A stretch of 64,000 bases of DNA from Escherichia phage F2. The notes beneath the pieces are model-generated. The model was not told the DNA's origin and did not search any database. It saw only the letters and a program-made list of their open reading frames with translations. Below, piece by piece: positions 3,437 through 62,953 of this stretch. A program made the position numbers and the translations under genes. The stretch is taken from sequence record NC_054913.1; one strand, given 5' to 3'. The stretch's first letter is position 1; the number at the start of each line of letters is the position of its first letter.

Positions 3437-3793
3437 ATGAATAAGCTGAATATTATTAACGAACTTCGTAAATGTGCAGAACCTACTCAGGAAGGATGGG
3501 ATATTTGGTACCACGGGGCTTATCTTGGAACTATAGTTAAAGTTAAAGCTGGGTTATATTTAATTATTCGCGAAAATTCTGAATTCCCTAATGGAGTAGC
3601 TCCTGGCGGTATACGTAAAAACTTTATGGCAGCGATCAGTTCATTTGTTGATGCCGCTTACGAAATCTATAAAGAAGATTATAAAGAAGATTATAAAGAA
3701 TATCAGCAGTCACAACCGGTTATTCGTTCGATTGGTGTAAATAAACAAGCACAAAAATCTATTTGGCAACGTATTAAGGAATGGTTTAAATGA
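3437..3793 (+). CDS. hypothetical protein with [12 protein letters not shown] repeat
   Basis: 118-aa ORF; RBS GAGGAA; tandem 12-nt DNA repeat at 3671-3699. Confidence 0.5.
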
Positions 3794-5587: not shown

Positions 5588-6247
5588 TTATTTGGCCCTT
5601 CCTAGTATTCGGACCGCTTGGTTGCATATAGCCGCTAAGCGATCCTCCTCAAGTATATTACTCCCCTTATACCAATACATCGTCACAGTTCCGGCATAGA
5701 TGTTATCCAAATTAAAGTATGGACAACTATACATATAAGAAAGTTCGGCAGTCTTAGATTTTGTAGGCAAAAATGCAAATTCTGATTTAGATGAGAAATG
5801 ACGGCCACTTAAATGAATTATATATTCATTGGCCGTTTTATCCACCGGGAATCCGCCAAGGGACTTTTCAGAAATTGTGCTAGGTAGTTTGCCTTCATAA
5901 GCTATAAGGTCGACAAAATAATTTAAGTTTTTAGGTCTGAAAGAATACACAGCACTAAAATCTGCACCAGATGAGATATGAACTATTTGCAGTTGTTCTA
6001 GAGCCGCAGATTCAAAACGTAAAGCTCGTTCTTTTTGGATTATTTCAGTATAAGTATCATACTTAGCTCTTACGTAATAATCCAGCAAAATACTTCCTTT
6101 GTACCATATTAGTGCCATTAGGAACAAAAGAATAATTACCGCTACTCGGGACATTAAAACCTTTCCAGTAGCGTTATCTTTGAAAATACGATCTAGCAAC
6201 CCAAATAGAATATCACTAAGTGAAAATGATACTTTTGGTGTTGCCAT
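5588..6247 (-). CDS. t: holin t
   Basis: 219 aa; N-terminal SFS.SDILFG.LDR.FKDNATGKVL and C-terminal motifs match T4 holin; TM segment VAVIILLFLMALIWY. Confidence 0.95.
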   Translation of the reverse strand: MATPKVSFSLSDILFGLLDRIFKDNATGKVLMSRVAVIILLFLMALIWYKGSILLDYYVRAKYDTYTEIIQKERALRFESAALEQLQIVHISSGADFSAVYSFRPKNLNYFVDLIAYEGKLPSTISEKSLGGFPVDKTANEYIIHLSGRHFSSKSEFAFLPTKSKTAELSYMYSCPYFNLDNIYAGTVTMYWYKGSNILEEDRLAAICNQAVRILGRAK

Positions 6248-6256
6248 AATACCTCC

Positions 6257-6808
6257 TTACTTAAAGATATTTATAATCGCTTTGATAATAGATTTGTTTT
6301 CAAGGTCAGGGAATTTAGGGAATTCACCGCCAAGATGTTCATGTTTTTCTAAAAGGGCAAAGAATTTTTTGAGCTCTTTAAATTTTCGTTTTTCTTCTCT
6401 ATTAGCAACCTCTGCGTCAATAAGAGAACTTAAAACACTGAATAATTTATAGAGTTCATGAATTTTCTTATCACGTTGAACTACGCGTTTATATGCTTCA
6501 TCTTCCTTCCACCCGTCGTCGGTCCAAATGTCAAATTCACCAGGTTCTTCTGTAGTAACATTTTGAAGAGCACCTGGGGTGTCAATAACAATTTTTTGCT
6601 TATCATAAGTCCATACTGTTTTTCCACGATGGTCTTCAACATATACCCATTCTTGTTCGCGTTCATCAAATACAACAGCATAGCCTTCTTTAGGGTCTAA
6701 AGGTTTTTTAATTGTTGAATGAGCGGGAAGACCAAGACCTTTAACCGGTTTGTAATTTTCTTCTTTGTAAAATTCTTTAGTGTCAAAATAATAATGATAT
6801 ATTTTCAT
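6257..6808 (-). CDS. 38: gp38 tail-fibre assembly protein (T4-type)
   Basis: 183 aa; N-terminus MKIYHYYFDTKEFYKEENYKPVKGLGLPAHSTIKKPL matches T4 gp38 as recalled; directly downstream of gene 37. Confidence 0.9.
   Translation of the reverse strand: MKIYHYYFDTKEFYKEENYKPVKGLGLPAHSTIKKPLDPKEGYAVVFDEREQEWVYVEDHRGKTVWTYDKQKIVIDTPGALQNVTTEEPGEFDIWTDDGWKEDEAYKRVVQRDKKIHELYKLFSVLSSLIDAEVANREEKRKFKELKKFFALLEKHEHLGGEFPKFPDLENKSIIKAIINIFK
6268..6275 (-). promoter_or_regulatory. late promoter TATAAATA for t
   Basis: TATTTATA on plus strand equals TATAAATA on minus, about 20 bp upstream of the t start. Confidence 0.5.
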
Positions 6809-6840
6809 ATTTAGAAGGGGCCGAAGCCCCTCTCCTTATG
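6809..6840 (-). promoter_or_regulatory. structured translation initiation region of gene 38
   Basis: On the mRNA, AAGGAG is followed by GGGGC-UUCG-GCCCC hairpin and then 8 nt to the AUG. Confidence 0.5.
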
Positions 6841-9800
6841 CTAAACGAACGATATAGTTAAAAGCAATGTTTTTAACCGTGTTTTCTGTATTACCTGTAC
6901 TATTTACAGTTATTGTATGTCCATGTGAACCAATTGCTACTGAATGGGTGTGAGCACCAATACCAACTGTATGGGTATGAGCACCAATACCAACAGTATG
7001 TGCGTGAGCGCCTGCGCTTGCAGCAGTACCAGATATAGAGTGCGAATGTGCCCCAGAAGAAGAAGAAGTTCCAAGCGTATTACCACCACCGGCGGATCCT
7101 CTTATAGAACCAGTACCAGGAGAGTTGTTACTTCCCGCATAAAGAGCGCTTGTGTGGCTGTGCGCACCGGCGGTGTTTGTGGAACCGCTCAAACTATGCG
7201 TATGAGCACCAGTATTATTACTGGTCTTAGTACCATAGTCGAAACTACTTGTCGTCTTAGTACCATAGTCAAAGCTTGATGTGGTTTTAGTACCTAAATC
7301 TGTGCTTGATGCACTTGCACTATGACTATGAGCCTTAACACCATCTGCCTCAGCGCTCAAAACAGCACGACCACTTGGTTTACCCTTGATAGTTTGTCCA
7401 CGCATATCAGGAATAGTACCTGTAGGATATGCGATAGCGAGCTTAGGATATGCAGACTTATCAAAAGTCTGACCTTCCATTAAAGCAAATCCAGCAGGAA
7501 CTGAATCACTTGGCCACGGAATCGGAGCACCGACTGGATAAGGTATTTGAGCATCAGAATACATCATATACACTTGACCAACAAGGTGACCAGCGGGTAA
7601 TTCTGCGACTGGGGTTTGGGGGCCTTCGTTAATTCCAACAACTGTCACGGCAGAGTTAGACGAACATTCATATTCAACTATTAACGAGTTTGAGAACGTT
7701 CCAACATATACATAAACATCGTAGGTGTCACCTGAAGTATTCATTGTAGCAATATTGGCGAAACCATTGCTGGTTCTAGCCCACATAGTGGCGTTAATAC
7801 CTTTAGGATTATTGTTGCCAGTACGAAGAACTATTTCGGTAATAGTGGCTTGTTCCGGTGAATTAGCATTAAATCCATTACCGCCAATTATTTTAAAGCT
7901 TGCTGTTCCTACAGCTTGTGGAATAGTTACTGTTGCAAATTTATACCATCCGGCGGTTGCTCCACCCTGCCAGCCGCCAGTATTAACTTTACGGTCTAAA
8001 GTAGTGTTTAAGTTAGCAAAGTTACCAGAGCCACCGGTGATATTACCGTCAGTTCCTAAAGTTGCGGCACCTGCAATAATTTTACCAGGTACGCGGAAGT
8101 CACCGGTACGACGGAATTCCCAACTTAAATCAGTTCCGGTAGTACTATTGCCCTGGTGATAATGGACGCGGAAGTCTCCTTGAGAAATTAAGGTGCCAAT
8201 AGAATAAGTGCTATCACCATTTACATACCGTTGTTTAACAATAGGAATGTATTCAGAAGTAGCAGTACGCTCTATATTCATATAAATTGGAGCCCTGACA
8301 TCTGCGTAATTCTGAGATGCAAACGAACCAGCTCCTGCTGGGCGTACCGTATCAGTACATTCGGCCTCAATATATGCAGCCTGACCTAATTGCATACGGT
8401 AATTAGGAGAAATGCGGCTATGACTAGTAACAACAACAATTTTGCTGTCATTGTCCACGGTAATCATATTGCCACCTCTGCCATCATCGCCTAACGTGAC
8501 AGAATGGCGCATTTGAACCATACCATTATTAAGGCCGATACTTAATGGGCGAAGATTACTTATTCCACCGAACCGCCCGGCATCTTTAGGAGTCGGAATA
8601 ATATGCAATGCGGCTTCTGAACGACGGAAAATAGCACCGTATTCAGCATTCCAAATTCTTAATGCATCAGCTGTTCCACCGAATTTAGCTTGACCGTTTA
8701 CAGATAATCCGCTATTAGCAACTAAACTTGATTCAGTAGCAATAGAGCCGGAAGCAGTAATACCACCGGAAGCTAATAATGCTCCAGCAATTCTAAATTG
8801 AATTGGTCCTACAGTTGAACCTGCTGCAGGAGCCGTACGTTGTGCATAAAAATAATAACCTTGGCCGTCAGCAACTTCAAACACAGTTTCACGAGATTTA
8901 TCACCAGACGTATTATTAGCAGTGCCCCATGCTTTAACAGTTACATAACTCTTATTCTGACCTGAACGAGTACCACCTTCCCACACGATTTGCTTAGTGC
9001 CGTCAATACCTGAAGCTGCTTTAAAAACTAGAGAAGCGTTGGTTCCATCACCATTAAAATATAATCCATTATTAAGCTTTAATGTTTGAACAGAAGCAAT
9101 AGTGCCATCGGCACGTAAATTTAATGAATTTGAACCAGTTTTAATATCTAAAATACCAGGCTCAATAAGAAGACCATCGCCCATACTAACAGACATGCGT
9201 CCTTGGCCACGGAAATAGTGATACATTTTAGCGTTAGAACTATAACCGATATGAGTCTGACCATCACCGTTATTATTACCATCAACATCAGTACGCGCAG
9301 TAAACATTGCCTGATTGCTATTAGGAAAATCCCATGTAGTACCAGAATCACGGCTATAACCGACCATCAATTTTTTAGTACTGTTAATACCATTGCTGTT
9401 TATTGTACCCGCAGAAATACCATTCGCAACTAAATCGATAACCCCGTCACGAACCCATTTAATACCAGTATCATTGTCACCAATTGCAATACCTTTACCA
9501 AACGAAACCAATGGATAACGTCCTTGGTCACCAACATCAGCAAGACCTATACCTATCGAATTAGCAACAGACATACGCCCATCTGTGGTATAAGACCATT
9601 GATAAACTTCAGCATTACGTCCCGTCCAATACGAAATATTCTGTGGTTTACCTGAACGAGCATCAGCAACTTCATGGAAAATAGCAGAAGAAACATGTCC
9701 GCGGAATTTACGAAGGTAGTTTATACCATTAGTATCCAAATCCGTTTCGGTTGGAGTATACTGCCAAGTAGGTAATGAAACTAAATCATATGCAGTATCA

Positions 9801-10450
9801 ATATTAGTGTCCCAAGATTTAGTGCTCACATTGATATTTTTGGTAATAACTTTAGGACCAATTAAAGAACCAGCTTTAGTTTCAATATTACTTTGAGTAA
9901 CTAAATATCCATTAGATACTAATAAACTTCCGGAATCAACTTGAAAATTACCGTTTCGATTAAAAGTCCAGTATTTTGAAGTCCCGGTTTCATCAATATA
10001 ATGGAATTTAAAACTACCTTCGTTTACTAATGTACCAGCAGAAAAAGTTCCATCTTTATAGCGTTGTTTAATCAGCGGATGGTATTCTGAAACAGAAGTA
10101 GTTGAACTTAAATCTGTAAAGATAGGGGCTTTATTCAAATGTTGGTTGGCCCAAGCACCATTTCCAGCGGTTTTAGGTAAAAATTCAATATACTTACCGG
10201 CGTAAACGAACATATTACCATTGAGGTTAAATGTGCCGTTTTGTAAATAATCACCATTTTGAGTTACATTACCGTTAATATCCCCGCCCTTAGCAAAGCC
10301 TAGGCTAATAATATTACCGAGGTCATCTTTAGTAAAAAGAGTTCGATCTTTTAAGTTTATCGCTAATTCGCCTTCGGCTAATTGTGCTGCAGTAGGATTA
10401 ACTCCTGCCACTTTGCTTCTTTTAAATTGTATCTGTTTTAATGTAGCCAT
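6836..10450 (-). CDS. 37: gp37 long tail fibre distal subunit
   Basis: 1204 aa; C-terminal repeated GAH(T/S/A)H(S/T) His boxes and ...[11 protein letters not shown] end; position between 36 and 38. Confidence 0.9.
7224..7300 (-). repeat. 30-bp tandem repeat (about 2.5 copies) inside gene 37
   Basis: gtcttagtaccatagtc... repeated; encodes [20 protein letters not shown]. Confidence 0.8.
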
Positions 10451-10458
10451 AAGTCCTC

Positions 10459-11124
10459 TTAATAATAGCCGAAATCTTGAACAGAATCTTTAATTACAAT
10501 CTGGTCGAAACGAGGAACATGATTAGCCTCGGATGCCGGATTCTGTGAGAAAAAGTTTGGTGCTGTTAAAGTACCGGTCATGGTATCGCCAGAACGCAAT
10601 ACACGGGAATTTGCGTTATCCGTAACAATATTTATTCGTCCATCAACATAATCTTTTCTTGTGAGATCATTTGCTGCAACTGGAGCGGTAACGTTAGAAC
10701 GGACGGGTCCATTTGCATAAATACCACCCTTATTGCTGATATCACCAGTACGAGTGTCAACAACAACAGTTCTACCTGCAGATCCTTGCGATGATTTAAA
10801 ACCAATGCCATACCATGAAACAATATCAATATTTGTTCTATCAAAAGTAGCAGCATCACCATTGCCAGGATAAATACCGCTTTGGTTTGTATTGTTTACA
10901 GCATATGGTACTTGAACACCAGCATTAAATGTTACCTTTGACGCAAAAGTACCACCATTAGCTTTAGAAACAAAATCGTTATCAGCTGCCTGTGGTTTAT
11001 TATATTCTGAATAGAGTTTAAACGTTTTATACAGGACGTCATCACCTGCTGGCATTAAAGGGAAATTACCTTGATGCCATATAACGGCACCGCCAGTTGT
11101 ACTACCAGCTTTTAAATCGGCCAT
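10459..11124 (-). CDS. 36: gp36 long tail fibre hinge connector
   Basis: 221 aa, same length as T4 gp36; synteny 35-36-37. Confidence 0.85.
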
Positions 11125-11148
11125 AGTTGTCTCCTTATATGTATACCA

Positions 11149-11156
11149 TATTTATA
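11149..11156 (-). promoter_or_regulatory. late promoter TATAAATA for gene 36
   Basis: TATTTATA on plus strand, about 25 bp upstream of the gene 36 start. Confidence 0.5.
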
Positions 11157-11181
11157 CAAAAATGGGAGCCCGAAGGCTCCC
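11157..11181 (-). terminator. hairpin terminator after gene 35
   Basis: GGGAGCC-TTCG-GGCTCCC hairpin followed by U-rich tract on the minus-strand transcript. Confidence 0.5.
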
Positions 11182-11186
11182 TAAAT

Positions 11187-12314
11187 TTATTCTGACGCTT
11201 CTTTAAATTCTTGTCCAAATACCTTACCAGTATCAGTTGAAGATTGAGTAGGTAATGTCATTATGTCTGGGGCACTTAAAGATTCTGAAACATAATTTAC
11301 ACGAATACCGTTTATACCAAACTCGGCAGGTTTTGAAACGCTTCCATTACATGATACTTCAGTGAATATAACGTTTCTTAATCCACCTTGCCCGACTGGA
11401 GCTGTACGATAACAATAAATCGTGAACCCGTCAGCACCGGCAGGAATTTCTATGTAGTCTTCATATATCTTCCATTCACCTGCACCCCCATCAAAGTTTA
11501 TATCCTTAAATGAAATAGGTGAAGTAGAAGGAGATTTAAAGAACCGAATAGAAAGTCGTGTCGTCCCTTGTGCTAACAAATCAGCATCGGCCATTAGTTG
11601 GAATTTCATATAAAGGAAATCTCCAGCCTTCAATTTATACCCAGCGAGAGGTGTAATAAGGGACGTTGTAGGCATCCTTTTAATTTCATTATTAGTACCT
11701 CCAACAGCGGATAAAAATGTGTCTGTCGATTCGTACGTACGACTAGGGAAGCCGGTAGCACCAATATCATTAATCGTGTCGTACACAACATCAAGTGGTG
11801 TACTATAGTCGGTTGAAGTTTTCTTATTACTATACTTAATATGCTCTAGTGCTATAGCATTCTTACCAGAAATATAAAATGCCGAATAAGAAATGTCCAC
11901 TATATTTAAAACTTGTTGAGCTAATGGAATAGCAGAACTCCCAACTTTAGTAAACCAGGCAAGAACTTCTGGCGGAAAGTTTGTTTTAGCGTTAGTAACA
12001 AGAGCAAATATAAAATTAGAAGCGTATGTGTCCATGAAAGTAACAAATGCACTTGACGTGGCGTCGTTTTCAGTAGAGAAATTATATGACTTAGATTCAA
12101 CTACTGCACCTGTTGTAGGATTTATTACACGAACGTTTAATCCAACGGAAAAAACCTGGGACCCAAGTGGATTATCTTGGAACTTAATATAAGCAGGAGA
12201 TGTTGATAGCGGGCAAGAGCCCGCTATGCTTAATTTAAATCGTACTGAATTGCTTTCCGATAAAAATGGCGTTTGGACGTATCCTTGTCCAAACTTAGCC
12301 ATAAATTTTTCCAT
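11187..12314 (-). CDS. 35: gp35 long tail fibre hinge
   Basis: 375 aa (T4 gp35 ~372); synteny. Confidence 0.85.
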   Translation of the reverse strand: MEKFMAKFGQGYVQTPFLSESNSVRFKLSIAGSCPLSTSPAYIKFQDNPLGSQVFSVGLNVRVINPTTGAVVESKSYNFSTENDATSSAFVTFMDTYASNFIFALVTNAKTNFPPEVLAWFTKVGSSAIPLAQQVLNIVDISYSAFYISGKNAIALEHIKYSNKKTSTDYSTPLDVVYDTINDIGATGFPSRTYESTDTFLSAVGGTNNEIKRMPTTSLITPLAGYKLKAGDFLYMKFQLMADADLLAQGTTRLSIRFFKSPSTSPISFKDINFDGGAGEWKIYEDYIEIPAGADGFTIYCYRTAPVGQGGLRNVIFTEVSCNGSVSKPAEFGINGIRVNYVSESLSAPDIMTLPTQSSTDTGKVFGQEFKEASE

Positions 12315-12322
12315 AATACCTC

Positions 12323-15300
12323 TTATTCAATCCACTCGAATTTAACAGATTTATTCACAGGGTCTGGAATAATGCGAACATTACCAATCCTTAAGAAATC
12401 CCTTATTGTCAAGTTTCCGATTGTTGCATTATCAGAAGGTAAAGCGCCAATATCAGAAGGTTGAGGAGGGTTTCCACCATCAAATACCTGAACAAAACTC
12501 GACCAAGAATTTTTAGTTTTCTGCCATGTACGTGTCCAACGGGTTGTACGTGCTTCTGGAGTTGTTGGATAAGTAATCCAATCTTGGTAAAGCGAATCAA
12601 GTGTGTTACCAAACTGAGTCAGTGTACCAGGAGATTTAACTTCTTCGCCACGTTCTAAGTATGGAAGTCCAGTCACTTCATTAGTTTTTTCAACCATTTT
12701 AAAATAACCCGGGAACTGGTTATAAGTGGCTGAATCGTTAATATCGATTGACCAGAATCCGACTGTATCAGCAGTAGGAGCACGAGTGTATAAATCAGCA
12801 GTTTTAGAACCATGAGAACGAATTCTCGAGTTAACAGTTAAACCACCTGAATTTATAGTAGCACCTTTGGCAATGATTAAGCCTTCACCAATCGTTACTT
12901 GGCCGGATGCATTATTAATAGCTAAAGGACGTAATCCATTAAATCCGCCAGTCTGATCACCTGATGCAGTAAGCATAAAATAGGTATTAACAGCATCATT
13001 ACGAATAAAGAATCCGTAATCACCACTAATTGCTCTGAAAGCATTTGCAGACTTACTAATGAATTCGCCATTAGCAGTAACTGAACGACCGAATGTTGCA
13101 ACGCCATTCACATTCATCAAACCGGAAGCATTAATGTTTATTGGCATTACAGTACCATTAATGCTAAACGCTATATTCCCATCTTTATTACGTTGAGAAT
13201 AAAAATGATTAGACGTTTCATCACCAACTTCAAATACAGTAGAACGTGTTGTATCTGATCCGCCACCAAACTGATTTCCCCAAACTCTGATAGACATCGT
13301 CTGTGCTGGGTTGGTTCCAGTTTGAGGTCCTTTCTCAAAAATAAGACGAGTTGCCGTTCCAGTATTAGAAATAGTTAATGTACTATTTGCCGAAACTGAA
13401 CCACCAAACGTAGCAGTACTAGATGATACAAGAGGGGCACTCAGATTCGTTTGTTGGGTTAAGGTTAGTGAACCATTAACCGTCTGTGCAATGTCCCTAC
13501 GAATGAACTGAGATGAATCTAGACCATCTAATAAATTTGCGTCAGCAGCTTTTGCTTTTAATGGCAAGTAATTTGCTAATACACGGTTTAATTCATACGG
13601 TGATACTGCATAGCTATTTTTCTCGTATAGCTCTAAGTTTTGTGTAGAACCGACTGTATCATTACCAACGAATGTAATAGAACCGGATGAAGTTTTAACG
13701 AATCCGCGAATTGCTGTAGTAGCAGCCCATGTTGGTTCGTTCTGGACAATCCATTTTAAATTCTTAGGAGATACAGCAGTATTCGCTGACGTTCCTGTTA
13801 CAGTTTCAGCCTGAGTAGCAACCTTAATTACGCCTTCAGACGTTTCAGTGGACTTAGTCCCTAAAAGCTTTTTAGGAGTAATAAGAACATCATCTAAAGT
13901 TCCTGCATTAGATTCTGCCTGGGTCGCTACGCGAAGTGTACCACGTTGTGTTTCATTTGCTTTAGAAATATCAAGAGTATAATGGTTCCACAAGGTTCCT
14001 TCTTCAATAAGTCCGGAATCAGAATTAACACTGGTACGGTCAGAAGAATCAAAATGAGTTTTAATTTTCAGTGGAGTCGAGATACGAGTATCATCAGTTC
14101 CAGTATCAAATTCAACTTGCGTAGCAATTTCGGCTATGCCGGATAATCCTTCCGTAGCTTTCCTATCATTTAACGTCTTAGGCGTTACTGCACGTGTATA
14201 ATCAGTCCCAGCATTAGTTTCTGCTTGCGTAGCAATTTCAATTAAACCAATACGTCCATCAGTAGAAGTTTTCTTATGTAGTGTTTCAGGAGTTACTACA
14301 GCGTGAGAGTATCCAGACTGAGATTGACCAGCAATTACTTCACTATCAATAGCTAAAATTACTGCACCTTGTTGAGTATATGTTGCTTTATATTGGTCAA
14401 GGGCTTTAGGAGAAATAGTTAAATTATTTACAGTTTTATTATAAACGTTAGTGCCTGCGGCACCACGAGTTTCAGCAGGAGTAGCAGAAGTAGTCGATAC
14501 ATATTTAACTATACCCGATAGTGTTTCGGAACCCTGACGTGCCTGTAATTTCTTAGGCGTAATAATCGTTGTGTCATCAAGACCAGCATCGGTTTCAGCC
14601 TGAGTAGCAATTTCAGCAAGACCTCGACGAGTTTCAGTTGCTGTACGCTCATTTAGTTTTTTAGGCGTAACAATAGTATCGTCCACAAATGATGCTGTGG
14701 AATTCTGGTTAACTTGTGCTGTTGTAGCAATTTTAGCGATACCACGTCGAGCTTCAGTTGCTGTACGATTTGCCAACGTTTCAGGAGTAATAGCAACTTC
14801 TTTAGCTGGAGTATTCTCTAAATCAACATTTGCTTGCGCTTGAGTAGCAAGAGCAATAACACCTAAACGAGCTCGTGTAGCATCAGTTCCAGCATCAACA
14901 CGTTCTATCGTAGGGACATTCTGTTGCACAACCCAATAACGTGTACCAGCAACGGTGTCTTCGATATACGATAATTCTAATACAGGAACATATGAAGTAG
15001 TGCCATTGAATTCTAGTTCAGTAACAGAGACCCATTGAGCATCAGGTGGATATTCAGAACGTTTAGGGAACTGAAGCAACGCAACAGAAGAAGCAATTGT
15101 ATCACCTTCGGCAGCTTTAATTTTTACTGTTTGGCCTTTACGCATGTAGTTCATTGAAATTTTAACAGTGTCACCACTCAAAATTCCGGTAGGCAGCGTA
15201 AGATTAATAGTTCCGGTTGCAGCGTTATTTGTGCCAAAAATAAGAACTTCTTCATTTGGACGAATATTTGAATCCGCACGGATAATACGAAGACGCGATT

Positions 15301-16198
15301 TCTGGTCGCCTTCCCATATACGCCATAAACTATTCGCAGCATCAAAAACAAAAAACGCGTCAGAGTCATTTCTGCCTTCGGCAATATGAGTCCCGACTTC
15401 ACCAATAGACGTTGTATCATCAAATGTTTTAACAATTGTATGATACAACGGGTTTAATTTATCTAAATCGACTAGGCTGATTATATCACCATTGTTAGCA
15501 TTACGTGGAAGTGTAATGTTGATTGGTGCTGCACTAGTAAAACGACGAACGATAAAATCATTTGCTTGTGCTTGATATGGTGCCGCAGGTGTAACAGTGA
15601 TTGATTCTTTACCGTAATCAATGATATACATCTGCCACAAACGATTACTAAACACAAACACTAGTTGTGAACGTGGTCGCGTCATTAAAACTGAACGAAC
15701 TTGTTCACCTCTAAAGTTTAAAATACTCTGCACAGACGCGTTAATCTGTACTTTAACTGTCCCGGTTCTTCCACCAATATCAGCCAAAACAACAGTATCA
15801 CCATCAACCGGCGCATTTGGCAACGTGAAAACCATATCATTGCCGGCGCCAGTGTTAACCGAAATCGATTCGCCTGAAGAAAGTTGATAAGTCCCAGAAG
15901 CGACAGTTATCCATTGTGCATCGGTACGAACTGCACGCCATTGTAAAAGGTTAAATGCCCCGGAAGGAGACACGATATCATTTATTGCTTGATATAAACG
16001 GTTGTCATAAAGAACAACAAATCCTTTGTTATATCCACGCGTAGAATCATATACTTGAACGGTGTTTTCTTGTACCAGGAAGTCAACGTTTACGCCATCA
16101 GTACCTACTGTACGGTCGGCTAATGCTACGTTAACAATCTTGTCGCCACCGGCGTCCAGACCGTCTTCGGCTCTGAACTTACGTTTGATGTCGGCCAT
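12323..16198 (-). CDS. 34: gp34 long tail fibre proximal subunit
   Basis: 1291 aa (T4 gp34 ~1289); repetitive beta-rich sequence; adjacent to rnh. Confidence 0.9.
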   Translation of the reverse strand: MADIKRKFRAEDGLDAGGDKIVNVALADRTVGTDGVNVDFLVQENTVQVYDSTRGYNKGFVVLYDNRLYQAINDIVSPSGAFNLLQWRAVRTDAQWITVASGTYQLSSGESISVNTGAGNDMVFTLPNAPVDGDTVVLADIGGRTGTVKVQINASVQSILNFRGEQVRSVLMTRPRSQLVFVFSNRLWQMYIIDYGKESITVTPAAPYQAQANDFIVRRFTSAAPINITLPRNANNGDIISLVDLDKLNPLYHTIVKTFDDTTSIGEVGTHIAEGRNDSDAFFVFDAANSLWRIWEGDQKSRLRIIRADSNIRPNEEVLIFGTNNAATGTINLTLPTGILSGDTVKISMNYMRKGQTVKIKAAEGDTIASSVALLQFPKRSEYPPDAQWVSVTELEFNGTTSYVPVLELSYIEDTVAGTRYWVVQQNVPTIERVDAGTDATRARLGVIALATQAQANVDLENTPAKEVAITPETLANRTATEARRGIAKIATTAQVNQNSTASFVDDTIVTPKKLNERTATETRRGLAEIATQAETDAGLDDTTIITPKKLQARQGSETLSGIVKYVSTTSATPAETRGAAGTNVYNKTVNNLTISPKALDQYKATYTQQGAVILAIDSEVIAGQSQSGYSHAVVTPETLHKKTSTDGRIGLIEIATQAETNAGTDYTRAVTPKTLNDRKATEGLSGIAEIATQVEFDTGTDDTRISTPLKIKTHFDSSDRTSVNSDSGLIEEGTLWNHYTLDISKANETQRGTLRVATQAESNAGTLDDVLITPKKLLGTKSTETSEGVIKVATQAETVTGTSANTAVSPKNLKWIVQNEPTWAATTAIRGFVKTSSGSITFVGNDTVGSTQNLELYEKNSYAVSPYELNRVLANYLPLKAKAADANLLDGLDSSQFIRRDIAQTVNGSLTLTQQTNLSAPLVSSSTATFGGSVSANSTLTISNTGTATRLIFEKGPQTGTNPAQTMSIRVWGNQFGGGSDTTRSTVFEVGDETSNHFYSQRNKDGNIAFSINGTVMPININASGLMNVNGVATFGRSVTANGEFISKSANAFRAISGDYGFFIRNDAVNTYFMLTASGDQTGGFNGLRPLAINNASGQVTIGEGLIIAKGATINSGGLTVNSRIRSHGSKTADLYTRAPTADTVGFWSIDINDSATYNQFPGYFKMVEKTNEVTGLPYLERGEEVKSPGTLTQFGNTLDSLYQDWITYPTTPEARTTRWTRTWQKTKNSWSSFVQVFDGGNPPQPSDIGALPSDNATIGNLTIRDFLRIGNVRIIPDPVNKSVKFEWIE

Positions 16199-62718: not shown

Positions 62719-62953
62719 TATTCATCGTCCTCATCATCTTCGTCTTCGTCGTCATCGCCTTCATCAGCGTCGTCTTCCGAAGCTTTAGCTTTCTTTTCTT
62801 CTTCAGGTTCTTCGCCTTCAATCAAAAATTGAGAAGCGATTTCTGCTTTGCGTGCTTCAATCAAACGAACCGTTTTTTCTGCCATTGCACTTTCAAAAAA
62901 CTTTCGAGTAGCAACGAGGTCGTTTGATTTAATAGCTTGAATTAAATCGTCCA

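Follow-up and report, generated by a model that had tools for sequence, protein, structure and literature searches.

Paired tandem repeats in the gp37 needle of Escherichia phage F2 as putative halves of structural modules

Background

According to Bartual et al. [quoted passage not shown] The gp37 proteins of the T2/T6 type end without an adhesin domain and are capped by a gp38 adhesin of about 260 aa, which contains glycine-rich motifs and hypervariable segments. The HxH motifs of the T4 needle coordinate seven iron ions (PMC6957217, PMC12609058), with octahedral Fe(II) being bound by six histidines from three chains of an SDS-resistant trimer (PMC6957217). The C-terminus of T4 gene 37 and gene 38 are derived from a lambda-like phage (PMC3157838). 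With respect to needle length, the Bas63 paper goes no further than the remark that the number of HxH motifs may scale with it.

The DNA analysed here, referred to as the window, comprises 64,000 nucleotides of Escherichia phage F2 (NC_054913.1), and all features described below are located on the minus strand unless indicated otherwise. The closest needles, used for comparison along with T4, are those of the phages AV117 (OR352947, Mosigvirus) and GiZh (KT184311, Enterobacteria phage, Tequatrovirus) and of the phage contig L002 (GCA_035235605.1).

Results and discussion

Composition of gp37

According to the list of open reading frames and the deduced translation, gene 37 (6836..10450) encodes the distal subunit of the long tail fibre with 1204 aa, and an exact-sequence look-up revealed that the protein is identical to YP_010068895.1 of Escherichia phage F2. 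Its T4 counterpart (NC_000866) comprises 1026 aa, with BLASTP identities of 45% in the shaft and 69% in the C-terminal 245 aa. The description of the fibre as longer than that of T4, given in the initial annotation along with the C-terminal repeats, is correct for the whole protein, but most of the additional length has little to do with the flagged region: of the 178 residues beyond T4, about 143 belong to a domain inserted further upstream, and the needle and tip together contribute only 20.

This inserted beta-rich domain (aa ~820-962; 7565..7993) is evident as a BLASTP gap in T4 and L002 and precedes the collar. It is common to many T-even phages, being detected by tblastn in 226 phage records at a coverage of at least 80%, and occurs in AV117 (67-77% nucleotide identity) as well as in gp37 proteins of the T2/T6 type, for example in IME08. 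The domain matches PHROGs 3299, 21552 and 6722; a phmmer search gave no sequence match in the PDB, and a single-sequence AF2 model (pLDDT 46) gave no Foldseek match in the PDB at E<=0.001.

A block-wise nucleotide comparison showed that gp37 overall is a patchwork from at least four sources. Within the shaft, aa 1-330 match L002, whereas aa 480-780 are GiZh- or T4-like. AV117, GiZh and L002 differ from F2 in this shaft mosaic and in gene length (1160, 1073 and 1018 aa, respectively, versus 1204 aa).

Collar, needle and tip

The flagged region aligns directly with the solved T4 tip 2XGF (E=5e-90), and the T4 domain limits given in PMC6957217 were used for mapping. The N-terminal part of the collar (aa 969-1039, corresponding to T4 811-881; 7334..7546) lies directly before the needle and contains a Pfam Collar match (PF07484; aa 974-1021; E=1.9e-11). 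It is followed by the outgoing, or ascending, arm of the needle stem (aa 1040-1099; 7154..7333), delimited by alignment to 2XGF and T4, which comprises the first HxH motif (KAHSHS), three DxGTK units and the second and third HxH motifs at 14-aa spacing. The tip or head subdomain (aa 1100-1128; 7067..7153), mapped onto T4 932-959, is the presumed receptor-binding surface; with 29 aa versus 28 aa in T4 it is unrelated in sequence to the T4 tip but nearly identical to the tips of GiZh and L002. The returning, or descending, arm (aa 1129-1187; 6890..7066), placed by its HxH positions and the 2XGF alignment, contains five HxH motifs with spacings of 14, 9, 9 and 9, and the C-terminal collar strand (aa 1188-1204; 6839..6889) is identical to the T4 protein (1010-1026). 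F2 thus shares with T4 a collar of about 90% identity, the last 35 residues without any exchange and, judged from the alignment, probably the out-and-back topology; the aligned arms comprise 60 and 59 aa in F2 versus 50 and 50 in T4.

The returning arm begins with a serine tract, S1129-S1132, encoded by (TCT)4 (7055..7066), which was recognised by a 3-nt gap in the DNA alignment and by protein comparison. The tract is (TCT)3 in GiZh, AV117 and L002, and this is the sole length difference between F2 and the closest needles. The latter possess the same needle of three proximal modules and one distal module, explained below, as well as the same tip family, with HxH spacings of 42, 14, 37, 14, 9, 9, 9. 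The nucleotide identity to AV117 is 91-100% per 90-nt block over aa 961-1204, and that to GiZh, L002 and AV117 is 94-100% over aa 1081-1110 and 91-97% over aa 1111-1140. An AF2 monomer of collar and needle, based on a 49-sequence alignment, yielded a long hairpin, but with a pLDDT of 54 and a pTM of 0.21 it is too poor to trust; the run used a single chain, whereas the needle is an obligate intertwined trimer. An open reading frame on the plus strand (6944..7279; 111 aa), antisense within the needle-coding region, was treated as a mechanical ORF.

HxH motifs and metal sites

Seven GxHxH boxes had been listed for the C-terminal 150 or so residues, and all of them are present in the stated order, with the first histidines at aa 1083, 1097, 1135, 1149, 1158, 1167 and 1176. 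An eighth HxH motif, KAHSHS at aa 1041, had been overlooked at the start of the flagged interval. The needle of F2 accordingly contains a total of eight HxH motifs versus seven in T4, the latter occurring in the same order in F2. The proposed match to the metal sites of T4 was confirmed by the alignment to 2XGF, in which all seven T4 motifs have counterparts: H883, H915, H929, H966, H980, H989 and H998 of T4 align with H1041, H1083, H1097, H1135, H1149, H1158/H1167 and H1176 of F2, and KAHSHS corresponds to the first T4 iron site. The HxH spacing is 32, 14, 37, 14, 9, 9 in T4 and 42, 14, 38, 14, 9, 9, 9 in F2. Judged from the sequence, the additional HxH motif is predicted to bind an eighth metal ion. 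A borderline match to the 14-aa phage fibre repeat PF03335 (aa 1078-1091; 21.4 bits versus a cut-off of 20) corresponds to the distal 14-aa HxH unit.

The two tandem arrays

Two tandem arrays were observed in the needle-coding region. The 30-bp array (7211..7300) encodes three 10-aa DxGTK units (aa 1051-1080), compared with two in T4, as is evident from the unit sequences, a 10-aa gap in T4 and the TRF result (7222-7294; 2.4 copies, 81% matches, score 97). The initial annotation had reported a 30-bp unit repeated about 2.5 times and encoding one decapeptide twice; this is right apart from the phase, since a decapeptide repeated exactly twice exists in a shifted phase, the stated one occurring exactly only once. 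The 27-bp array (6932..7012; aa 1147-1173), located in the returning arm and overlooked previously, contains one unit more than T4 according to TRF (6944-7009; score 97-100; VGIGAHTHT twice), the unit DNA and a 9-aa gap in T4. The gaps in the T4 alignment match single units exactly, one being a 10-aa DxGTK unit and the other a 9-aa VGIGAHTHT unit. Only four tandem arrays with scores of at least 60 were found in the whole window, and the 30-bp and 27-bp arrays are the top two, so that the 30-bp array is not a chance feature.

The 30-bp units are identical to each other at 17-22 of the 30 nucleotides (57-73% DNA identity), with a 17-nt exact match shared by units 2 and 3. The three-unit array is also present in AV117, GiZh and L002; the DNA of unit 2 and that of unit 3 do not vary among these phages and F2, and F2 and AV117 agree in the DNA of the complete array of three units.

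A spacing rule linking both arms

Homologues of the needle were collected by three independent retrievals, which resulted in 208 distinct sequences. Their HxH spacings were described by a rule in which the outgoing length equals 12+10a+14(b-1) and the returning length equals 14(b-1)+9a, where a is the number of proximal modules and b=1 stands for a needle with no distal 14-aa pair. Exactly this rule was found in 201 of the 208 sequences, a number that overstates the independent events, as the homologues are related by phylogeny, the real support being roughly ten distinct balanced architectures. Nine (a,b) classes with a=1-5 fit the rule exactly, and P0210, with a of about 6, is one residue off. 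The non-fitting homologues are off by one residue, carry a mutated histidine or are truncated; only L032, an IMG/VR contig (3300030021_000020) with a 3/2 count, represents a real count mismatch, indicating that an assembly, at least, can contain an unbalanced gene. A class with three units and six HxH motifs was considered as a rule-breaker and rejected, as it is devoid of the distal 14-aa pair (b=1) and its spacing of 42, x, 9, 9, 9 is balanced. A single tip family was found combined with 2, 3, 4 and 5 proximal modules, balanced every time, and the three-unit architecture also occurs in many prophage proteins.

The fit of 201 of 208 sequences with one true mismatch leads us to regard the repeats as coupled structural modules, three in F2 versus two in T4. 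An explicit statement of the two-arm rule, with its periods of 10/9 and 14/14, seems to be lacking in the literature surveyed.

Proposed paired needle modules

The joint reading of these data, to which we assign a probability of about 80%, is that the end of F2 gp37 is a collar-needle-tip module of the T4/lambda-Stf kind, in which the tandem repeats are the paired halves of proximal modules, three in number compared with two in T4. The chain would go out along the needle, make the tip and come back, so that the trimer would form a six-stranded needle with metal ions held on its axis by the HxH pairs of three chains. Each proximal module would consist of a 10-residue DxGTK unit without histidine in the outgoing arm beside a 9-residue (V/I)G(I/V)GxHxH unit in the returning arm, and the distal module of one 14-residue HxH unit per arm. 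The side-by-side packing of both proximal units is suggested by the antiparallel arms of equal length rather than by coordinates. The 30-bp repeat would then represent the outgoing half of the proximal modules and the 27-bp repeat (6944-7009) the returning half. Three proximal modules would account for eight HxH motifs instead of seven and for stem arms of 60 and 59 residues, compared with 50/50 in T4, with +10 aa in the outgoing and +9 aa in the returning arm, and the needle may be longer than that of T4 by very roughly 25-30 A. The copy number could change in evolution, but only changes balanced on both arms are expected to persist, since a hairpin with unequal arms would lose its register. 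Moreover, the repeats may serve as short homologies for the exchange of tip cassettes between phages and prophages.

This last aspect leads to the strongest alternative, in which the repeats are mainly recombination linkers and the number of units is a by-product. In their 'His-box' model, Tetart et al. (1998) are said to propose that T-even phages and lambdoid prophages swap whole tip cassettes by way of conserved motifs on either side of the tip. Mosaic junctions were indeed observed inside the repeats of F2: in comparison with T4 and L002, the left junction lies within DxGTK unit 2 (7274-7259) and the right one within the HxH repeats (about 6990-6910), the collar and the last 35 aa being T4-like and the section from DxGTK unit 2 through the HxH repeats being L002/GiZh-like, although the mapping of the breakpoints relied on no more than two or three comparators and the right-hand junction is not sharp. 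Recombination at the repeats, as proposed initially, is thus supported, and it agrees with the assembly of gp37 as a whole from at least four sources. Very many tail fibres of E. coli prophages are among the closest relatives of the C-terminal 244 aa, and the lambda origin stated for the T4 region (PMC3157838) points in the same direction. Recombination alone, however, leaves the equal arm counts and the 10/9 and 14/14 periods unexplained, which argue for a structural constraint. We consider recombination as the main role of the repeats to have somewhat less than an even chance, and it is compatible with the paired-module reading rather than exclusive of it.

Another proposal had been that the 30-bp array acts as a contingency repeat prone to slippage, the copy number of which drifts alone and thereby changes the host range. 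Duplications in the C-terminal region of T4 gp37 reportedly expanded the host range (Tetart et al. 1996), the in-frame tandem repeat of F2, in which units 2 and 3 have an exact stretch of 17 nt in common, is genuine, and the copy number ranges from 1 to about 6 among the homologues. The expected copy-number variation in relatives thus does occur, but only as balanced pairs, and with a single exception among about 207 distinct sequences the copy number equals that of the repeat in the returning arm. A slippage hotspot is further contradicted by the low DNA identity of the units (57-73%), by units 2 and 3 being the same base for base in the four independent phages F2, AV117, GiZh and L002, by the position of the 30-bp repeat in the needle stem and not at the receptor-binding tip, and by the confinement of the length change versus the closest needles to the (TCT)4/(TCT)3 tract outside the array. 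Neither near-identical units nor copy-number differences among near-identical genomes, both characteristic of contingency loci, were found. Slippage is accordingly largely refuted and very improbable. An assembly or sequencing artefact, which the initial annotation had named as a refuting outcome, was excluded and has a practically negligible probability. Although mis-assembly of short tandem repeats is conceivable in principle, no support for it was found: the array is in frame and balanced by a second array, it recurs with three units in AV117, GiZh and L002 (the last from a Shigella sonnei assembly), which are independent genomes that differ in genus and country, and the three-unit architecture is present in many prophage proteins.

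The needle of F2 gp37 belongs to a well-known family and is an ordinary example of it. Hundreds of lambda-type Stf proteins of E. coli and Shigella prophages, which are accompanied by Tfa chaperones, share the collar-needle-tip module with 62-74% identity and obey the same module rule; in F2 this module sits on the T-even gp37 shaft of a lytic Mosigvirus, and the tips differ. Little is changed in principle by a T4/lambda-type tip in an already deposited phage, with a chaperone, His boxes and a mosaic origin that are all textbook knowledge. For comparison and engineering, both arrays should be treated as one paired unit, since altering one alone is predicted to break the needle. The spacing rule makes the number of metal sites and the relative needle length readable from the sequences of hundreds of phage and prophage fibres, and the same tip on needles with two to five modules provides a natural experiment on whether fibre reach affects the host range. 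A further and rather doubtful suggestion is that needle length can be tuned in discrete steps, with the count of proximal modules (1 to about 6 among the homologues) determining the projection of the tip. If so, one and the same tip could get to its porin or LPS-core receptor whether the surface layers in between are shallow or deep, stepwise and balanced lengthening would have its genetic device in the paired 30-bp and 27-bp repeats, and modules could be added or removed by design for fibre retargeting without altering the tip.

gp38, receptor and intergenic spacer

Gene 38 (6257..6808) is located directly downstream of gene 37 and encodes a T4-type tail-fibre assembly chaperone of 183 aa with 70% identity to T4 gp38, a Pfam Caudo_TAP domain and a match to PHROG 105 ('tail fiber assembly'). 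The earlier assignment of gp38 as a short T4-type chaperone and not a T2-type adhesin is therefore well founded. Locus and gene order are the same as in T2/T6-type phages, in contrast to which F2 possesses a chaperone-type gp38 and a gp37 with its own needle and tip. Since gp38 is not an adhesin, the receptor specificity should reside in gp37, as had been assumed. Phage AV117, whose collar and needle show 94-100% nucleotide identity to those of F2, experimentally requires OmpC and the inner LPS core (PMC10844046), and OmpC along with the LPS core are likewise candidate receptors of F2, a suggestion that is soft because the F2 tip differs from that of AV117 at about 7 residues.

A scan for promoters and terminators between 6200 and 7400 gave nothing above shuffled sequences. 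Genes 37 and 38 are separated by a spacer of 27 nt, which contains a GGGGC-UUCG-GCCCC hairpin (6817..6830; fold -15.6 kcal/mol, z=-2.3) that adjoins the Shine-Dalgarno sequence of gene 38, and the spacer is conserved in T4.

The long-tail-fibre genes of phage F2

A T-even long-tail-fibre block occupies the minus strand of the window at 5588-16198 and comprises the genes 34 (1291 aa), 35 (375 aa), 36 (221 aa), 37 (1204 aa) and 38 (183 aa) as well as the holin gene t (219 aa). Since core genes located elsewhere in the window share 99.6% identity with phage JQD51 and 98.7% with HX01, the phage backbone is that of a Mosigvirus. The deduced gp37 protein (6836-10450, minus strand) is exactly YP_010068895.1, which Escherichia phage F2 (genome 168,241 bp) encodes as the distal subunit of its long tail fibre; this protein is the sole member of its own 90%-identity cluster. 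The gp38 protein shares 70% identity with T4 gp38 across 179 residues and matches Caudo_TAP and PHROG 105 (tail fibre assembly). It is therefore a T4-type chaperone, as the initial annotation had held, in contrast to the adhesin system of T2 and T6, and we agree with the earlier view that receptor specificity should reside in gp37. A GGGGC-UUCG-GCCCC tetraloop hairpin (6817-6830, minus strand) lies in the 27 nt that separate gene 37 from gene 38, adjoining the ribosome-binding site of the latter; it is not a simple terminator, since a T-run is absent. The T4 spacer is nearly identical, but the 3' stem of its hairpin is one C shorter.

Two paired repeat arrays in the gp37 needle

Translation of gp37 recovered all seven GxHxH boxes claimed previously, in the order claimed (aa 1083-1178), along with an eighth HxH motif, KAHSHS, at aa 1041, right at the start of the interval annotated initially. 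In T4 gp37, the collar is formed by residues 811-881 and 1010-1026, the needle stem by residues 882-931 and 960-1009, and the tip by residues 932-959; seven iron ions are located in the needle, each bound by the HxH pairs of three chains (PMC6957217). The last 245 residues of the F2 protein matched 2XGF, the sequence of the T4 gp37 tip crystal structure, with E=5e-90, and 7/7 T4 HxH motifs have aligned counterparts in the window, which argues for the proposed equivalence of the His boxes with the T4 metal sites. Outside the tip, the alignment revealed exactly two internal gaps in T4, one corresponding to a DxGTK unit of 10 aa in the outgoing arm of the stem and the other to a VGIGAHTHT unit of 9 aa in the returning arm; by this mapping, the arms comprise 60 and 59 residues in the window and 50 and 50 in T4.

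At the DNA level, TRF detected a 30-bp array of DxGTK units at 7222-7294 (2.4 copies, 81% matches, score 97; in frame at 7211-7300, minus strand, by translation) and a 27-bp array of VGIGAHTHT-type units at 6944-7009 (2.1-2.4 copies, 87-93%, score 97-100; in frame at 6932-7012, minus strand, by translation), the latter being absent from the initial annotation. These are the top two tandem repeats of the 64-kb window, in which just two others reach a score of 60.

The gp37 needle is modular, consisting of proximal and distal two-armed modules. In a proximal module, a histidine-free 10-residue unit of the outward arm would be partnered by an HxH unit of 9 residues in the returning one, and a distal module contributes one 14-residue HxH unit per arm, this unit being the Pfam phage fibre repeat PF03335 (21.4 bits, aa 1078-1091). 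Because the T4 arms are antiparallel and of equal length, T4 residues 893-912 (two DxGTK units) should lie level with residues ~979-998 (9-spaced HxH sites), as judged from the published domain limits and not from coordinates. The window needle contains one distal pair and three proximal modules, and therefore has eight HxH sites and a stem about one fifth longer than that of T4; at ~3 Å per residue in an extended strand, the additional length is estimated, not measured, at 25-30 Å.

Coupling of the arrays among homologues

Homologues of the C-terminal region were gathered in three independent ways, by a word-indexed protein search (best 120 of 2607 matches used), by an IMG/VR scan (80 loci) and by HMMER, run exhaustively against cluster representatives with E<=0.001 (best 150 of 515 matches used). 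The spacings between consecutive HxH motifs, measured on every distinct collar-to-end sequence, were [32,14,37,14,9,9] in T4 and [42,14,38,14,9,9,9] in the window, and other homologues yielded [52,14,x,14,9,9,9,9], [62,14,41,14,9,9,9,9,9], [42,x,9,9,9], [32,x,9,9], [42,14,14,43,14,14,9,9,9] and [22,14,14,44,14,14,9]. The first spacing equals 12+10a, where a is the number of proximal modules, the trailing 9-residue spacings also number a, and the 14-residue spacings are equally numerous on both arms. Among the matches listed, both arms fit exactly in 201 of the 208 distinct sequences parsed, although kinship among these sequences means that the ratio overstates independence; the exact fits fall into nine architectures (a,b), in which a ranges from 1 to 5 and b-1 is the number of 14-residue spacings per arm. 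The occurrence of ~10 different architectures, every one balanced, is the stronger argument. One tip family (AQRAWRNGGGGNG...) is carried by needles whose proximal modules number 2, 3, 4 or 5, balanced each time. Copy-number variation in relatives, suggested earlier as a check, occurs in nature, but in matched pairs.

Among the non-fitting sequences, the homologue P0210 (a ~6) is one residue off the rule, and others show a one-residue offset, one mutated histidine or a truncation. The only real mismatch among the 208, with three DxGTK units versus two 9-residue spacings, might represent an imbalance that the phage tolerates, an allele that is defective or a misassembly. It is located on a T4-like metagenome contig (IMGVR_UViG_3300030021_000020, 523-3753), in which gp37 is followed by gp38 and t. 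The scaling of HxH number with needle length is an idea already published (PMC12609058), and the F2 needle is an ordinary representative of a well-known family that was deposited and annotated before; the explicit two-arm module rule is of modest added value.

Slippage and recombination

The 30-bp repeat had been proposed as a slippage or recombination hotspot for host-range variation. Slippage is contradicted by the mutual identity of the three units, which is 17-22/30, by their conservation and by their position in the needle stem, outside the tip. Units 2 and 3 show no base differences between the window and the Danish Mosigvirus AV117, the Tequatrovirus GiZh from the USA and the phage contig L002, which is part of a Shigella sonnei assembly, and in AV117 all three units are identical to those of the window. 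Among the 27-bp units, 22/27 is reached only by adjacent pairs of the three 9-spaced ones. A (TCT)4 serine tract (7055-7066, minus strand; S1129-S1132) lies where the tip meets the returning arm. GiZh, AV117 and L002 carry (TCT)3 at this site, the sole length difference among these otherwise near-identical needles, and this looks like true triplet slippage.

The proposal of a recombination site is supported by mosaic junctions within the repeats. On three-way alignment of the DNA, T4-like sequence extends over the collar and DxGTK unit 1 of the window and gives way to the L002 type inside unit 2 (7274-7259); the window then remains L002/GiZh-like across the tip and becomes T4-like again within the HxH repeats, somewhere at ~6990-6910. 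Rather than acting as a free-running hotspot, the 30-bp repeat forms one half of a structural module whose other half is the 27-bp repeat, and it marks a site of recombination.

Gene 37 as a whole is a patchwork, with aa 1-330 being ~100% L002-like, aa 480-780 GiZh- or T4-like, aa 811-960 resembling only AV117 (67-77% nt identity) and aa 961-1204 matching AV117 with 91-100% nt identity per 90-nt block. This mosaic agrees with the published motif-mediated cassette exchange and the lambda-like source of the T4 g37 C-terminus and g38 (PMC3157838), and also with the abundance of E. coli prophage fibres, which are very numerous among the module's nearest relatives in the matches listed.

The L002 gene 37 (GCA_035235605.1, 3826-6882, on a 99-kb T4-like contig) is intact and encodes 1018 aa; the protein collection contains merely a 293-aa call (P0001). 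Within the window gp37, aa ~98-172 (about 9935-10159) and aa ~706-786 (about 8093-8335) are paralogous, with 42% identity and the pattern SEYxPxxKQRY...GTLxxxGxFxxHY...; the N-terminal copy is also present in L002, and the T4 N-terminal region does not align to it.

Inserted domain and putative receptor

The 30-bp repeat does not account for the greater length of gp37. Of the 178 residues by which gp37 exceeds its T4 counterpart, ~143 form a separate beta-rich domain (aa ~820-962; 7565-7993, minus strand) between a conserved 14-residue motif and the collar, and needle and tip contribute just 20. This domain is missing from T4 and L002 gp37. At >=80% coverage, 226 phage records contain it, some of them from phages that have T2-type adhesins, and it is represented in several tail-fibre PHROGs. 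Neither a Pfam family nor a PDB relative was found for it, and structure modelling gave no usable result.

The collar and needle of AV117 are nearly identical to those of the window, with ~7 residues differing in the tip. Since AV117 requires OmpC and plates on a waaR but not on a waaC mutant (PMC10844046), our best guess, and only a guess, is that F2 might use OmpC and the inner LPS core as receptor.

Two further tandem repeats were observed in the window, a TCATCGTC...-rich 15/21-bp repeat at 62722-62777 (2.5-3.7 copies, 73-78% matches) and a perfect 12-bp repeat (TATAAAGAAGAT x2.8) at 3668-3700 on the plus strand, within a 118-aa ORF (3437..3793).
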